From Trichodesmium erythraeum IMS101 (lineage in GTDB: Bacteria > Cyanobacteriota > Cyanobacteriia > Cyanobacteriales > Microcoleaceae), in NCBI RefSeq assembly GCF_000014265.1, contig NC_008312.1:2280001-2312000 (forward strand): a DNA stretch of 32,000 bases, written 5' to 3'. Positions 19,029 to 28,485 of this stretch are shown here, one piece after another. The position numbers were made by a program, and so were the translations under genes. The notes beneath the pieces were generated by a model that did no database searches, was not told the DNA's origin, and saw nothing but the letters and a program-made list of their open reading frames with translations. Positions within the stretch are counted from its first letter, which is position 1. Every line of letters starts with the position of its first letter.

Positions 19029-19990
19029 GTGCGACTCGTTGGCCACTAAACTAGGAAACTAGGTATACATGACCGTTCCAAGTCACCACATGAGGACAAC
19101 CTCGACTTGTGAATAACTCTTATTACCTTGGTGGTGAAATTCCATCTGCCTTGTTGTTGGGTTGACAGCATAGACCACAGGGTAGCGACTGAACATCAAT
19201 CCCTGAAGCTGGTTTAAAAGCGGGAAAATACCAGTTACCTAGGAACGATACCGCAAGCAAAGGTTGACAAGTGGACGAATAGGAAGGTAATAAAACTCTC
19301 GTTACCGCAAACCATTCCAAAGGTAGCTATGGGATGTAGGACGAAAGTCAGAGGGTCAATGAGCATAAGTATTATAAAGCTTAGGTTAACAATCATATAG
19401 CACCCTTCGGGAGATTTTACCCCACTAAATCAATCGTAATAAAGGAATAAGGGAACGAGGAAACCTCTTTAAGACACCTAAGTTAATAGGTCAAAAACTT
19501 AGGAATCCATTCAAGGTCAATCTACACAAAAGATGTAGGTTTTAAGGAGAGTAGGATTGAGTAAGAAGCATAATGTTTGCAGACGTACTCACTGTTAGAC
19601 GTAATGTAGAGTAATAACTAGCTATGAATAAAGCTAAAACCCTAAAAAGAAGTTTAGAAAATCCTGAACCATTTTTAAGTGTGGCATGGGATACAAACGA
19701 TATACCAGATCCATGTAGTGTTAATCCTAATCTTAAATGGAAGGACATTAACTGGAAGAAGGTGGAAAAGTATGTGTTTAAGTTGCAAAAATTAATCTAC
19801 AGAGCATCCAGCCGTGGCGAAATCCGCAAGATGCTTAAATACCAAAAACTTCTGACCAAAAGTTATTACGCCTTGTTGCTAGCTGTTAGACGGGTGACTC
19901 AGGATAACCAGGGTAAGAAAAAGGCGGGTATAGATGGTATAAAAAGTCTACCCCCAATGCAAAGATTTAACCTGGTAGATGTATTAAGCA
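19029..19990 (+). mobile_element. Group II intron, 5' portion only (5' GUGCG, domains I-IV, first ~120 codons of the intron-encoded RT); 3' part missing
   Basis: It starts with the GTGCGAC consensus at 19029. About 595 nt of ORF-free, structured-looking RNA follows. The ORF from 19624 then encodes ...KWKDINWKKVEKYVFKLQKLIYRASSRGEIRKMLKYQKLLTKSYYALLLAVRRVTQDNQGKKKAGIDGIKSLPPMQRFNLV, the RT-0/RT-1 region of group II IEPs. I found no RT palm, maturase X domain, domain V or domain VI downstream. Confidence 0.8.
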
Positions 19991-20118
19991 GCGTAGCAGC
20001 CTACCCTGGACAGAAAGAGTATAAAAATTTAGAGAATAATAGAAAGGAATTGGTGAAAAAGATATATTCAGAAAATTTAGTATTTATAGATGAAACAGAA
20101 TTTAGTAATTATACATGA
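19624..20118 (+). pseudogene. Chimeric ORF: truncated group II intron RT N-terminus fused in frame to an internal fragment of an IS630-like transposase
   Basis: Residues 1 to about 120 are RT-like. Residues about 125-164 (GQKEYKNLENNRKELVKKIYSENLVFIDETEF) look like the segment preceding and including the first catalytic D (xLV(F/Y)IDE(T/A)G) of IS630-family transposases. Confidence 0.65.
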
Positions 20119-21247: not shown

Positions 21248-22942
21248 ATTTTTTCAGCTAAAAGTTAAAATTCAAAGTGAAAATTATTGGTGCTGTTTAA
21301 TATATAATATAATATTTGTCAATATTTTTAAGGTACGGTTATTTTTATTTTTTTTCTATTCTCTTTTATCTGTTTCTGTAAGTATTTGGCTCTCAGCTAT
21401 CAGCTTCATTACTTTTAGTTGAAAGTAGAGCTGGTCGTTTTTGTACTTCAATTATATGGTAAAAAATGTAGTATAAGTTAAACAAATGCTTGCTTCATTT
21501 ATTAAAATGCTGAGAGCTAACTGTTAATACTTAAATACCTTTCAGTATTTCTAGAATTGGTATTTCCTTATGGGATGTAAATTACTAATATTATAGCACA
21601 ATAGTTACTATAGTTAGTAGATATTAAGTATTAAATTATTATCTTATAATACCATTTCTCATATATTAATTCTACCCTTTAAAAGTAGCTAAAATAACTA
21701 CAGAAATCACAAAAAGTAGTTAACCACAAATAATGGTTAATAAATAATTTTTCAAAATATCAAGCTCAAGTTGAGCAAAACAAAGTTTTTCATAAGTTGG
21801 TATTCAATAATTATATTTTAATCAATATCTAATTTGATTGAGAGTTTATTATAACTCTAAGCTACTTACACTAAATAAAATTTCCCATCAGTATTTTTTT
21901 ATTTAATAGAATAGATAATAATACATTTAAAAAAATATTATATTTGATAATTTTCAACTAAATTTATAACCAGTTAATTAATATTAGGAACATATAATAT
22001 CAAAATTTTGATTTGACTAATAACTACAAAAAGTTAAGAATAAATTTTATCCTATTTCCTTATTTTTAACATATATAGAGCTGATATTAAATCATTTTGA
22101 TTGATGAATCCACACTTTGAGAAAATCAGGAAATTTTTGGTCAAATAAAGACGCTCATAACTATAAAATTTCTCAAAAATAACATTACTTAGTTCTGTGA
22201 TATATTGAGACATTTAACTAATAACTATTCTTTGATAAAACAAGTGTAATGAGGCTTACAAGTTAAAAGTTTTTAGAATATCTCCTTATTAAAATGAATT
22301 TAGTGTAACTAGAGAAATACAACTTATTTTTTGCCCGTTTAATTATCAAAATTCAAAACTTTTTAGGGTCAGCTACATAAAATTATTAGCATTATTAATT
22401 CCGGAATTTTATTATTAATTATCAGCTTAAATTATAGCTAATCTTAAGTTAGTTATAGTTATAAGGAAGAGTATAAAATTATCTTAATTAATGTTAATTA
22501 GAAAATATGTTTATATTTAATGATAAAATCAACATATAGCAATTTCCACACTGTTAAGATACAAAATTTATTTGTTTTACTAGGGAAGCTGCATGAAACA
22601 TCCATTAAACAGTAGTAATTTTTAAAACAGAGTATAGAAAAGAAAAAAAACTTTATCTCAGTAAGTTGAGAAACGTTATATTAAGACGGATTTACTCAAA
22701 CAATAAATCCTGTTTATTGTCCTAATTATTGTTTTTCATATCAATATCTATCAGACCACTTTGACAAATTTTATAGACTGAATTAATAAGCACTTATACA
22801 AAATTATTGACAAAGTACGGTATTTACACAAGTGTTTTATTTCAGTTTCAATCAATATGTAATTCCTAATTGTTTACCTACTTAACTACTTTTATTTTTA
22901 TGGCTAAGGTGCTGATAGTTGATAGCTGAATACTTACTTTCT

Positions 22943-24043: not shown

Positions 24044-24393
24044 TTTGATTTTAGTTTTTATAGTAGGAGATTATACTAAGTCATTTTGGTTATTATTGGC
24101 AAGAAAAGCTATTTTATTAAACAGGTAAATAATTAGGAATTATCAACTTAAAAAACTAAAAATATAATCCTTTTATAGGTATCACGTTTTATCAAAAATT
24201 TTATATCGGCAATTATAATTTATTAGTAAATATTATACCTTTTAATTTATATATTTATTGGATTTCATATTTCTCTATAAATTAAGTTGATTTTGACTGT
24301 AAAAATAAGGTATAATTTAGTAAGTAATAAAAAAATATTTAATCAAATAATATAATTCAATAATTATAATTTTTTGAGAAATTAAATTTAACT

Positions 24394-25170
24394 ATGGCTA
24401 ATAATAAAACTGGTATTGAATGGACGGACAGGACTTGGAATCCTACCACAGGTTGTGATAAAGTTAGTCCTGGTTGTGCTCATTGTTATGCAGAAGCAAT
24501 TACAAAACGTTTTACTAATAATTTTCCTGAAGGGTTTACTTTGAAACTGCATCCTGAGCGTTTAAAGCAACCATTAAGTTGGCGTACTCCTAAGCGAGTT
24601 TTTGTTAATTCAATGAGCGATATTTTCCATGAAGATGTTGATCTTGATTTTATCAAACAAGTATTTAAAATAATTGGCAAAACCCCTTGGCATATTTATC
24701 AAGTTTTGACGAAAAGACATGAACGTTTGGTTGAACTAGCACCTCAATTAGAATGGCATGAAAATATTTGGATGGGTGTATCGGTGGAAAGTCAAAATTA
24801 TGTTCATCGTGTTGATTATTTACGGCAAGTACCTGCTAATGTGAGATTCCTTTCTTGTGAACCCCTTTTAGGGGATTTACAACTTAATTTAATTGATATT
24901 AATTGGGTAATTGTAGGTGGTGAATCTGGTAATAAATATCGTCCGATGAAAGAGGAATGGGTAAAAGGTATTTATGAACAATGTCAAGCTGCTGATGTAG
25001 CTTTTTTCTTTAAACAATGGGGAGGTAGAACTCCTAAAACTTTAGGCAGAATTTTTAATGGAAAAGTTTGGGATGAAATGCCAGAAGTGTGGAATAAATA
25101 TCAAAAAAAATGGAGGGGGTGCAAGGTAGAATATAAGGGTAAATCTAGAAAAGAAAAGATTTATGTTTAG
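24394..25170 (+). CDS. DUF5131 (phage Gp37/Gp68 family) protein with a three-Cys motif
   Basis: The N-terminus GIEWTDRTWNPTTGCDKVSPGCAHCYAE (C-x6-C-x2-C) and later motifs VFVNSMSDIFHE, QVLTKR, FLSCEPLLG, WVIVGGESG and FFFKQWGG match the PF07505/DUF5131 pattern as I recall it. Confidence 0.85.
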   Translation: MANNKTGIEWTDRTWNPTTGCDKVSPGCAHCYAEAITKRFTNNFPEGFTLKLHPERLKQPLSWRTPKRVFVNSMSDIFHEDVDLDFIKQVFKIIGKTPWHIYQVLTKRHERLVELAPQLEWHENIWMGVSVESQNYVHRVDYLRQVPANVRFLSCEPLLGDLQLNLIDINWVIVGGESGNKYRPMKEEWVKGIYEQCQAADVAFFFKQWGGRTPKTLGRIFNGKVWDEMPEVWNKYQKKWRGCKVEYKGKSRKEKIYV

Positions 25171-26273
25171 GGGAATATAACTTCTACTTTGTCTCCAAAT
25201 GTATCTTTTTTACGCTTAGATGGGTTTGTAATAATTTTTCCTTCAGCTTCCAATTTTAGTAGGGTATCTTTGTAATTCTTTTTAATATATCGCTTGTCTA
25301 CATGATGTTGATCATAGATATCTATCATTTTAATTGTCTGACCTGCAAAGTCATTTAAAAGCATATTTTTTAACTCATCAAGTGGTCGGAATAGTTCAAA
25401 AAGTAAAGGTTGATATTCTGTTGCTGGATTATACTCAAAAGCTGGTACGCCTTGTTCAGAAGATGAACTTTCCTTAGCCATAATTTCTTTCATAATTGAG
25501 TATCCTCGAATATGCTTTGATATAAAAATAAGATGATGGCTAGTTCTTCTTCCTTTAGCATTTCTAAAGCGAAAAGGTAATACATATTCACCACCAATAT
25601 TTTTGAGTTCTTGAGATATATTTTCAATGATAATTAATTCTCTCTCGTGTGGCTTAATTCTTTTTCTTTTAATTTCTTCTTTAAGCTTATTAAATCTTTG
25701 TTCACCAAACAACGCTTTCATGTGTTTTTCTACTTTCTGATTTTCTAAGCCCATATTTATTCTGTTGTAATTAAAGAATAGTATACAATCACAACCCCAA
25801 TCTTTAATTACTAAACGTATTAGTTCACGAGATATGCCTTTATAACCCCAAGGATCAATAAAAAAAAGTTTAGGTAGATTACTAATTTTTTTAATTAATT
25901 GAAGAAATTGTTCTCCTACTTCTGTATTTAAAATTTGTGGTTGATGTTTTAAATTTTCGATATTTTCGAGAGATTTTATTGCTTGTTAAAGCGACTTTGT
26001 ATTATCAGAATTTTTATCGTTAAAAATAGTAATTAGTTTCTCTCCCATGTCTTGATCAGCAATAGCACGTTCTAAAATTAGTAATGGTGTAGATTTTGAA
26101 CCATCTTGATAACGACCTGGCCCAGAAAAAAGATCGATATATGCAATATTTGTATTCTTTTTTTTCGCTTGTGGTATTATGACCTTTGCCCAAGCCCAAA
26201 AATATTTAGCTACAATTTCAGCTTTGACTAAAGATGTTTCTGTAGACTTATCAAAAAAAGAATTATTTGTCAT
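25167..26273 (-). pseudogene. Three-Cys-motif partner protein TcmP-like gene, a single reading frame interrupted by one in-frame TAA
   Basis: The track ORFs 25986..26273 and 25167..25754 are in the same frame. The 231 nt between them is also open in that frame (QAIKSLENIENLKHQPQILNTEVGEQFLQLIKKISNLPKLFFIDPWGYKGISRELIRLVIKDWGCDCILFFNYNRIN). The only interruption is TAA at 25986-25988, with 95 codons before it and 272 open codons after it. The IDLFSGPG and FIDPWGY motifs resemble SAM-MTase-fold motifs I and IV. The position next to a DUF5131 gene fits the TcmP family definition. Confidence 0.7.
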
Positions 26274-26461
26274 AATTTAGATATTAGTATTATTTATAAA
26301 ATTAAATTTTTGTTAAAACTCAACAATTTTAGGCTAGATGTATTCTAGAGTTTAAAAAAAAGGTTAAATTAATTAAGTATTATATTCAATTATATAGCAA
26401 TCCTATTGAAGTTGTAATATTTTAGTCAAACTCAGGAGTCAGGAATCAGAATAAGAGTTAA

Positions 26462-26485
26462 TATTAACTCTTATAAGTGCTGATA
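26462..26485. promoter_or_regulatory. Perfect 24-bp palindrome in the divergent intergenic region between tcmP and the TPR-oxygenase gene
   Basis: ATAAGAGTTAAT|ATTAACTCTTAT is an exact 12+12 inverted repeat. It is preceded by the short tandem tcagga-g-tcagga-a-tcag. Confidence 0.45.
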
Positions 26486-26691
26486 CAAAATTAATTAGCT
26501 AACTTTATTCCCAGTGATTTTTACATTTGTAGTCTGTTCAGTAGCTCAAGTATTTGTAATTAATTTTGTATAACTTATTAAAAAGTATTATAGCCAATGG
26601 GAGGACTGTTATATTTTGAAAATTATTCAAAAATTTAATTCTATTTACTATTTAAAAAAAATCAGCTTAATATTAGTACTAGGATAGAACT

Positions 26692-28485
26692 ATGAACAGA
26701 GAACAAAAAAGAAAAGCAGTAAAAAATAAAAGTCAAAAAATACTCAATAATAATATCCCAGAAAATGCCTTATATCGTGCTTTATCTTTTCATAAAAACG
26801 GAGAATTGCAAAAAGCAAAAGTTATCTATGAAAAAATTATTCAGTTGGAACCAAATAATTCTCAAGTCTTAAATTATCTGGGGGTACTTAAAGCACAAAT
26901 GGGAGATAATAAGAGTGCTATAAGTTTAATAAAGAAAGCTGTTAATCTAGAACCATTAAATTTTAAATACCTCAATAATCTCGGCAATACTTATCGCGCC
27001 TTTGAACAACTTGATAATGCTATTGACTGTTATAAACGTGCGATTCAGGCAGATAAAAATTCTGCTGAATATCACCTAAACTTAGGTATTGCTTTGACCG
27101 AAAAAGGAATCATAGAAGAAGCGATCGCTTCCCTAGAAAAAGCTTTAACTATTAATCCAAATTATCAGCAAGTTAACATGGCTCTAGGAGATATATTTCA
27201 GACTCAAGGGAAATTAGATAAAGCAATATCTTCTTACATAAAAGCTCTCTCAATAGATCCAAAATATTCAAAGAATCAAAATCCCAATAATTTTGATGCT
27301 CTATTATCTTTAGGCATGGCACTTTATCGCCGTGGAAACCTCAAAGAATCACAAATAACTTATGAACAAGCATTAGAAATTAATCCTCATTCCACAGAAT
27401 GCTTGACTAATATTGCTGCTACTTTTTATGAGCAGGGAAGAGTTGATATAGCTGAAGCTTGTTATCAAGCTGTTGTTGATTTAATTCCTACTTCTACTGA
27501 TGCTCATATAAATTTGGGTTTTCTGTTAAGCCAACAGGAAAAATATGACGAAGCAATTGAGTGTTATAAAGCAGCATTGAAGCAGGATCAAAATTCTGTT
27601 AATGCTATAGCAGGTCTAGCAGAAGTTTTCGGAAAAAAATCTGACTGGAAAACAGTCTTTCAACTATATCAAAAAATTCTGAAACTTGATTCTAACTCTG
27701 CTGATGCTTATGCAAAACTAGGAATATCTTTGCGAGAAATAGGTAAATCTAAAGAAGCAATTCCTCAATTTGAAAAAGCTATAAGTATTAATAATAGACA
27801 TATTAAAGCTTATGCTAATTTGGGTTTAGCTTTGCAAGATGTAGGCAAACAGTCTGAAGCTAAATTTATTTTTGACTATTCAGAATTAGTAGCTAAATAC
27901 CAGTTTACTAGTATAGAAGGATGGCAAAATTTGACAGCTTATAATCATGACTTGAAAGATTATATTGTTCGACATCCTACTCTTTTAAAAAATCGACCAG
28001 GCAAACCCATAAATAAAGGTAGTCAAACTTATGAAATTTTTACAGATAATACTCCTGTAATAACAGCACTAAGAAAAAAAATTAATAGTTATCTAGAAGA
28101 TTATTTTAGTCGTTTCACTTCTAATTCTAACTATCAATTTTTTCATAATATACCCTTAGATTGGAAACTCAGTGGTTGGGCAGTTGTTTTAGAATCAGAA
28201 GGATTTCAATCTTCTCATATTCATCCTGAAAGTTATTGCAGTGGCGTTTATTATATTCAAGTTCCTAATACTATTAAAGAAAATAATTCTGAAGCAGGTC
28301 ACTTAAATTTTGAAACTTGCTTTTCTTCAAAGTTAGATATGAAAAATTCAGATAAATATCAGGTTAAACCACAAGCAGGATTATTAGTAATTTTTCCTTC
28401 TTATTTTTGGCACTCTACTATTCCATTTATTGGAGATAGTGAGAGAATTTGTATTTCGTTTAATATGGTTCCTGTGAGTAGCTAA
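26692..28485 (+). CDS. TPR-repeat protein fused to a C-terminal 2OG-Fe(II) oxygenase-like domain (PF13759-type)
   Basis: The N-terminal ~390 aa are TPR units. The C-terminus has GFQSSHIHPESYCSGVYYIQVP...KPQAGLLVIFPSYFWHSTIPF...ERICISFN, i.e. the H-x-(D/H)...H jelly-roll pattern of the putative 2OG-Fe(II) oxygenase family. One HIP1 site lies inside. Confidence 0.8.
   Translation: MNREQKRKAVKNKSQKILNNNIPENALYRALSFHKNGELQKAKVIYEKIIQLEPNNSQVLNYLGVLKAQMGDNKSAISLIKKAVNLEPLNFKYLNNLGNTYRAFEQLDNAIDCYKRAIQADKNSAEYHLNLGIALTEKGIIEEAIASLEKALTINPNYQQVNMALGDIFQTQGKLDKAISSYIKALSIDPKYSKNQNPNNFDALLSLGMALYRRGNLKESQITYEQALEINPHSTECLTNIAATFYEQGRVDIAEACYQAVVDLIPTSTDAHINLGFLLSQQEKYDEAIECYKAALKQDQNSVNAIAGLAEVFGKKSDWKTVFQLYQKILKLDSNSADAYAKLGISLREIGKSKEAIPQFEKAISINNRHIKAYANLGLALQDVGKQSEAKFIFDYSELVAKYQFTSIEGWQNLTAYNHDLKDYIVRHPTLLKNRPGKPINKGSQTYEIFTDNTPVITALRKKINSYLEDYFSRFTSNSNYQFFHNIPLDWKLSGWAVVLESEGFQSSHIHPESYCSGVYYIQVPNTIKENNSEAGHLNFETCFSSKLDMKNSDKYQVKPQAGLLVIFPSYFWHSTIPFIGDSERICISFNMVPVSS

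Follow-up and report, generated by a model that had tools for sequence, protein, structure and literature searches.

Genes for a DUF5131 (Gp37/Gp68-family, PF07505) protein and for TcmP (TIGR04474), its three-Cys-motif partner, together form a widespread, catalogued and functionally uncharacterised module, and we analyzed the copy of this module carried by the cyanobacterium Trichodesmium erythraeum IMS101. The copy lies in a 32,000-nucleotide (nt) stretch (contig NC_008312.1, positions 2,280,001 to 2,312,000; hereafter the window, whose numbering is used unless another contig is named). We found that it is a degenerate member of the family: the DUF5131 gene is intact, but a C-to-T change has made codon 96 of tcmP a nonsense codon and inactivated that gene, and the two genes are unable to work as a pair, which makes the locus a relic and not an intact two-gene cassette. 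On balance, we consider it probable that the window holds a decaying chromosomal copy of a module whose intact pairs serve as targeted nucleic-acid modification systems in phage-host conflict.

The family membership of both window genes is clear. The DUF5131 product covers all 243 positions of the PF07505 profile (E 1.8e-96; score 322.8 bits, Pfam gathering threshold 28.9), is identical to the T. erythraeum IMS101 protein ABG50801.1/WP_011611177.1, and matches the PADLOC models PDC-M30B (E 2e-107) and PDC-M41B (E 1.3e-109). C21, C28 and C31 of its C-x6-C-x2-C motif are unchanged across 50 aligned homologues, as are G175, G176, E177, S178 and G179 of a glycine-rich segment that could be a site for binding S-adenosylmethionine (SAM). 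Both pieces of the interrupted tcmP match TIGR04474, the N-terminal 95 amino acids (aa) with 74.9 bits and the C-terminal 195 aa with 55.4 bits (cut-off 53), compared with 218 bits for the intact orthologue P0123; they also match PDC-M30A (E 2e-18 to 2e-11), and hence both component hidden Markov models of PDC-M30 (A and B) match adjoining window genes. An initial annotation of this DNA, made from the letters alone, had proposed these family placements, which the profile searches bear out, and had correctly recorded the three-Cys motif, the tail-to-tail arrangement, and the IDLFSGPG and FIDPWGY motifs of the partner (Table 1). It made no mention, however, of the in-frame stop.

Table 1. Features of the TcmP-DUF5131 locus of T. 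erythraeum IMS101, in window coordinates
Feature	Positions	Strand	Basis or remark
Spacer upstream of DUF5131, 350 nt, AT-rich	24044..24393		Ordinary for genome
DUF5131 (Gp37/Gp68) gene, intact, 258 aa	24394..25170	+	Open reading frame; PF07505 profile match
Three-Cys motif C21-x6-C28-x2-C31 (CDKVSPGCAHC) of DUF5131	24454..24486	+	Translation
Glycine-rich GGESG, DUF5131 residues 175-179	24916..24930	+	Alignment
Convergent DUF5131/tcmP stop codons, 4-nt overlap	25167..25170		Open reading frame coordinates
tcmP pseudogene, 368 aa with read-through	25167..26273	-	Translation; TIGR04474 and PDC-M30A matches
GMT-like winged helix-turn-helix (wHTH, PF22560) of TcmP	25221..25436	-	E 2.7e-19; residues 107-178 of the 195-aa piece
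FIDPWGY, motif IV-like, TcmP residues 138-144	25842..25862	-	Translation
Premature in-frame TAA, tcmP codon 96	25986..25988	-	Translation; homologue alignment
IDLFSGPG, motif I-like, TcmP residues 46-53	26115..26138	-	Translation
Spacer from tcmP to TPR/2OG-oxygenase gene, 418 nt	26274..26691		Ordinary for genome

The TAA at codon 96 is the sole internal stop in the tcmP frame. It leaves a 95-aa piece and a 195-aa piece that restarts only at M174, and FIDPWGY, which lies between the stop and the codon-174 ATG, is therefore contained in neither; no intact tcmP open reading frame of about 370 aa is present in the window. Residue 96 is Gln in 15 of 16 aligned TcmP homologues (Cys in the other one), and the codon reads CAA (Gln) in other Trichodesmium contigs. 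The homologues are uninterrupted, at 366-377 aa, and all full-length ones keep a C-terminal segment of the form S.RRKNTF.D.V.VTFP.

Decay of tcmP was also evident across a haplotype set made up of the window and six public contigs (L001-L006) aligned at 99.6-100% identity. The codon-96 TAA is shared by the window, L003, L004 and L005, and in L001 it is accompanied by a C-terminal frameshift. L002 and L006 have CAA (Gln96) but carry a 1-nt insertion near 25219, after which their TcmP ends in ...ITNPF, giving a 352-aa product without the conserved C-terminal wing. Among the haplotypes examined, no lesion-free tcmP of T. erythraeum was found, and gene calls showed the split form in about 18 of the 23 contigs read. 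Sequencing error as the source of the stop was considered and rejected, since independent assemblies and metagenomes show the same TAA. Across the seven haplotypes, variable sites numbered 12 of 1103 in tcmP, 5 of 768 in the flanking spacers and 0 of 777 in DUF5131 (Fisher p = 0.002 for DUF5131 versus tcmP), and the tcmP variants include P34S and N282S, both at nearly invariant residues; the exact DUF5131 protein is present on many public contigs. The variability of tcmP is thus like that of the spacers, and DUF5131 has none, which indicates pseudogene-like evolution for tcmP but not for DUF5131. DUF5131 stays constrained after loss of its partner, next to a tcmP and spacers in which about 1% of sites vary, and it may retain a function of its own in T. 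erythraeum, independent of that partner.

The locus itself is old. In Okeania and in sister lineages, an intact pair occupies the same place: the gene order is glycosyltransferase, pyrophosphatase (PPase), TcmP, DUF5131 and NagX-like in one Okeania contig (L008), and TcmP, DUF5131 and NagX-like, followed further on by ClpP, in another (L007); sister-lineage marine contigs encode intact pairs of 370-376 aa and 258 aa with TcmP 87-88% identical. The window PPase is the T. erythraeum IMS101 protein ABG50803.1. The presence of the pair at the same PPase/NagX locus in Okeania means that it predates the Trichodesmium-Okeania split; the locus was vertically inherited from a common ancestor with Okeania and decayed in T. 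erythraeum. An inserted accessory module, bounded by AT-rich spacers of about 350 and 420 nt, had been suggested in the initial annotation; recent insertion is rejected by the Okeania synteny. The spacer lengths were right, but they are no mark of insertion: gaps between open reading frames of at least 90 aa in the window are mostly 350-1700 nt, with the cassette spacers at the short end, and the GC content of the cassette (0.24-0.34) is the same as that of its surroundings, in a genome that is about 40% non-coding (PMC4649490). A search for repeats flanking the cassette yielded nothing beyond AT-rich matches of low identity, attributable to chance, and revealed neither att-like nor inverted-repeat boundaries. 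Promoter and terminator sites were no commoner in the spacers than in shuffled sequence, a tRNA scan of the window was empty, so that there is no tRNA integration site in it, and an Rfam scan of the window found no element.

In many phyla, the members of intact pairs are inherited together and in strict linkage. With each species represented by a single genome, a scan found 80 TcmP loci (57-81% identity) in Cyanobacteria, Chloroflexota, Acidobacteriota, Planctomycetota, Poribacteria, Nitrospira, Elusimicrobia, Deinococcales and others, and DUF5131 adjoins TcmP at 78 of them; at the remaining two the contig ends at the gene. In the reverse direction, all three cyanobacterial DUF5131 genes looked up have a convergent GMT-wHTH gene adjacent. 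The orientation varies, with 57 convergent loci (mainly cyanobacteria), 15 in the order TcmP to DUF5131 and 4 in the order DUF5131 to TcmP, and most of the convergent loci have genes whose 3' ends meet or overlap. No third conserved gene accompanies the pair among the loci surveyed; the next commonest neighbour, a hydantoinase (25 loci), reflects cyanobacterial synteny. In a mirror-tree comparison, the pairwise identities of TcmP and DUF5131 correlate with r = 0.75, where shuffling gave 0.15 at most. The TcmP family as a whole comprises 3,825 clusters at 50% identity (E <= 1e-3). A separate observation concerns Hormoscilla sp. GM7CHS1pb, where a second, partial DUF5131-like segment (L020, 14342-14761; residues 101-240, 67% identity) lies about 4.5 kb from the complete pair.

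Outside the housekeeping surroundings of most cyanobacterial copies, pairs are found in company that suggests conflict, often so in other phyla. At some cyanobacterial loci (three reverse look-ups), the neighbourhood includes toxin-antitoxin pairs, a transposase or a PIF1 helicase. Two type I restriction-modification (R-M) operons contain the pair, in the order HsdS, SIR2, HerA, one further gene, TcmP, DUF5131 and HsdR (L052, 2998-13110) or HsdM, HsdS, DUF7380/DUF4209, one further gene, TcmP, DUF5131 and HsdR (L064, 2125-13014), and in a type III R-M locus (L056) it stands between a Res-like gene and an N6/N4 methylase. At two further loci, the pair is followed by a TOTE AEP-helicase (primase-helicase; L054) or by SNF2/NOV_C, a DUF1016/YhcG nuclease (PDDEXK) and DUF1156 (L076). 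In temperate Gordonia phages, a convergent pair whose 3' ends again meet or overlap stands between the integrase and the immunity repressor genes, as gp41/gp42 of ThankyouJordi (L087, 4986-6853), where the partner gene is immediately downstream of the repressor and in the same orientation, and gp42/gp43 of Jablanski (L088, 3986-5855). DUF5131 of these phages is 58% identical to that of the window, and the partner, annotated as 'methyltransferase', scores 187 and 117 bits on TIGR04474. In actinobacteriophages, the region near the repressor reportedly tends to hold defence genes expressed in the lysogen. TcmP genes were also found on actinobacterial, haloarchaeal and Bacteroidota plasmids. This defence and phage context argues for a role in phage-host conflict. 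DUF5131 appears in 180 phage records and TcmP in only about ten; the phage TcmPs are mutually very divergent, those of different phages having no reciprocal tblastn match, whereas DUF5131 is conserved.

What the two proteins may do was approached through predicted structures and conserved residues. An AlphaFold2 model of the intact TcmP P0123 (pLDDT 79.5, pTM 0.80) was matched by Foldseek in the PDB to Trm1 (E 3.7e-5) and RlmJ (E 7.9e-5), and further to MnmM, KsgA, PsiM, Trm5 and other SAM methyltransferases, with probability 1.0 for Trm1, RlmJ, MnmM, KsgA and others, and a search of viral folds in BFVD gave generic methyltransferases only. In 127 diverse members, K17, G51, G53, D140 and G143 are invariant, and conservation is 90% or more at D47, F84-N85-D86, P141 and Y144; these residues would correspond to motifs I, II (FND) and IV of an amino-methyltransferase-type site, motif IV being one that we take to resemble the DPPY and DPFG motifs of Trm1/RlmJ-type amino-methyltransferases. 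All 127 members carry the PF22560 wHTH. The DUF5131 model (pLDDT 77.8) has a beta/alpha barrel-like fold. DUF5131 is listed as a subgroup of the radical SAM superfamily in SFLD/RadicalSAM.org (PMC9477430), and it matches TIGR04471, 'radical SAM mobile pair protein A', at a sub-threshold level (E 1.3e-21). These features hint that DUF5131 might be a radical SAM protein.

Strict pairing, variable gene order and co-evolution together suggest a two-subunit enzyme. In the mechanism that we propose for intact pairs, TcmP would be the targeting subunit, in which a class I SAM-methyltransferase fold (D-x-F-x-G-x-G, FND and DPWGY) may select and present the nucleic acid, and the winged helix-turn-helix would bind it, most likely as DNA. 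DUF5131 would be the conserved catalytic partner, a partial triosephosphate isomerase (TIM) barrel whose C-x6-C-x2-C motif probably holds an Fe-S cluster for radical-SAM-type chemistry. The pair may thereby install a base or nucleotide modification that either marks self DNA or blocks invader DNA. A bolder version, which we find rather doubtful, is that intact pairs form a new immune or epigenetic module in which a wHTH methyltransferase-fold subunit directs a non-canonical radical-SAM-type enzyme to make a novel modification, with DUF5131 also acting independently of its partner. If this were true, the partner-independent activity would explain both the invariance of DUF5131 after tcmP decay and the phages that carry DUF5131 alone.

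Several points weigh against the proposed role in targeted modification and conflict. The putative methyltransferase assignment of TcmP derives from predicted fold and motifs only: none of the 127 members matches a methyltransferase Pfam family at E <= 0.05, and sequence searches of the PDB with the TcmP and DUF5131 proteins and profiles gave nothing meaningful. The nearest structural neighbours of TcmP are RNA, not DNA, methyltransferases. For DUF5131, the top PDB match is lipoyl synthase (LIAS), but with E 9e-3 and a TM-score of 0.28, followed by generic TIM barrels; the Cys region of the model is of low confidence, PF04055 (Radical_SAM) gives no match to DUF5131 even at E <= 10, and the cysteine spacing is CX6CX2C and not the canonical CX3CX2C. 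The flanks of the pair in cyanobacteria are mostly housekeeping genes. The Gln96 allele with its short C-terminal truncation might be active, in which case the absence of a functional allele in T. erythraeum would be unproven. Finally, the searchable literature on both families and on PF22560/GMT-wHTH holds no functional study of, or experiment on, either of them, as the initial annotation had supposed.

Some of the same observations could be read as housekeeping RNA modification with no role in conflict, TcmP methylating tRNA or rRNA and DUF5131 adding or preparing a further modification. The top structural neighbours of TcmP (Trm1, RlmJ, KsgA, MnmM and Trm5) are RNA methyltransferases, and this explanation would also suit the housekeeping neighbours in cyanobacteria, the vertical inheritance in Okeania and Trichodesmium, and the high sequence conservation across phyla (57-88%). 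We nevertheless regard it as unlikely, because the spread of near-identical proteins across phyla is patchy and points to horizontal transfer, because the pair occurs on phages and plasmids and within R-M and defence loci, and because it is dispensable in T. erythraeum; moreover, a winged helix-turn-helix of the TcmP kind is usually associated with double-stranded DNA.

Still less likely, in our judgement, is abortive infection of the viperin type, whereby DUF5131 would produce a nucleotide analogue that is toxic or terminates chains, with TcmP as a sensor or regulator, not a modifying enzyme. Such a function would accord with the radical-SAM-like features of DUF5131, with the defence-island and prophage lysogeny-region context, and with the frequent occurrence of phage DUF5131 without TcmP. 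However, the SAM-binding and catalytic-type motifs of TcmP are all invariant, which argues for an enzyme and not a pure sensor, and no similarity to viperin emerged in any profile or fold search.

An R-M-like or addiction pair, in which TcmP is a protective methyltransferase and DUF5131 a nuclease or toxin, is improbable. The methyltransferase fold and DNA-binding wHTH of TcmP would fit it, as would the position of the pair within R-M loci and defence islands; TIM-barrel nucleases do exist, and the apurinic/apyrimidinic endonuclease AsfvAP appears in the DUF5131 fold search, at rank 30 with probability 0.28. The state of T. erythraeum, with TcmP dead and DUF5131 intact and invariant, should nevertheless be lethal were DUF5131 a restriction nuclease; it argues that DUF5131 alone is not toxic, and against DUF5131 being a nuclease restrained by TcmP methylation. 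In addition, the structures that DUF5131 matches best belong to radical SAM and TIM-barrel enzymes and not to nucleases, Pfam scans show no nuclease domain in it, the pair has no third conserved gene, and the excess of DUF5131 over TcmP in phage records also counts against such a pair.

That the window tcmP is functional after all, because the stop codon is read through or because the protein works in two pieces, might be suggested by its single in-frame stop, by a frame otherwise open with conserved motifs and by the perfectly conserved DUF5131 beside it, but is very improbable given that DPWGY has the stop before it and the next ATG after it, that other haplotypes have independent second lesions, that substitutions accumulate at a spacer-like rate and strike conserved residues, and that we know of no recoding signal in T. 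erythraeum.

Additional features were noted around the locus. The gene at 26692-28485 encodes a 597-aa protein with many tetratricopeptide repeats (TPR) and a C-terminal 2-oxoglutarate (2OG)-Fe(II) oxygenase domain (PF13759/TIGR02466); it is absent at the syntenic Okeania locus, where PPase directly adjoins TcmP. The largest gap in the window, 1.7 kb at 21248-22942, has no open reading frame of at least 90 aa and a GC content of 0.21-0.26. At 19624-20118, a group II intron reverse transcriptase is reduced to an RVT_N open reading frame in the window, and other Trichodesmium contigs (for example, L001, 3459-5593) have about 2.1 kb of extra sequence at window position ~19987, with GIIM/RVT_1 and HNH open reading frames; the window copy of the intron looks like a deletion derivative. 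In a sister-lineage contig with an intact pair (L090), gene calling recovers no more of the NagX-like gene than a 70-aa fragment (2568-2780). Which gene of the locus is decaying may differ from one Trichodesmium lineage to another.

As far as the window is concerned, the analysis chiefly corrects the earlier picture: the copy is a relic in a genome known for abundant non-coding DNA, and a poor entry point for discovery. Of the points raised in the initial annotation, the conserved linkage of homologous pairs, the phage or mobile connection and the SAM-methyltransferase-type fold of the partner all found support (78/80 loci; Gordonia phages and plasmids; the Trm1 and RlmJ matches with conserved motif I, II and IV residues), and its suggestion of an Fe-S or metal centre in the Cys protein is plausible in view of the radical SAM listing. 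Its description of an 'undescribed system' was overstated, because association with PF07505 three-Cys proteins is what defines TIGR04474 and gave TcmP its name, and the pair is already a PADLOC candidate, PDC-M30. PDC systems, including PDC-M30, are unvalidated 'guilt-by-embedding' computational candidates, and in Pseudomonas aeruginosa PDC-M30 was predicted in 32 strains, of which 68.8% were phage-resistant, a weak correlation only (PMC10855318). The family is still a worthwhile experimental target, being strictly linked and co-evolving and occurring in R-M operons, beside SIR2-HerA and in the lysogeny region of actinophages; the Gordonia phage copies and the intact copies of Okeania and sister Trichodesmium lineages are practical starting points.

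The module can be set against several known systems. With the TIGR04474/PF07505 pair, the window shares matches to both models, adjacency of the genes, the three-Cys motif and the C-terminal PF22560 wHTH, and it differs in that its TcmP is a pseudogene with TAA at codon 96. PDC-M30, whose B component is shared with PDC-M41, is matched in both components, and the non-cyanobacterial homologues are likewise embedded in defence loci, but the Trichodesmium copy is broken and lies outside any defence island. The pairs of L052 and L064 are cargo embedded in type I R-M operons, and those of the Gordonia phages in prophage lysogeny modules, unlike the Trichodesmium and Okeania copies between housekeeping genes (PPase and NagX-like). 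In comparison with the radical SAM superfamily, DUF5131 has three conserved N-terminal cysteines, a barrel-like predicted fold and lipoyl synthase as its top match, and departs from it in its C-x6-C-x2-C spacing (versus C-x3-C-x2-C), the lack of a PF04055 match and the weakness of the structural match. TcmP, in turn, resembles Trm1 (tRNA m2,2G) and RlmJ (rRNA m6A) in its predicted Rossmann-type fold, GxG motif I, acidic FND motif II and a motif IV of the form D-P-aromatic-G-aromatic, and is set apart from them by the lack of sequence-level similarity, an extra helical insert, the C-terminal wHTH and its obligatory DUF5131 partner.

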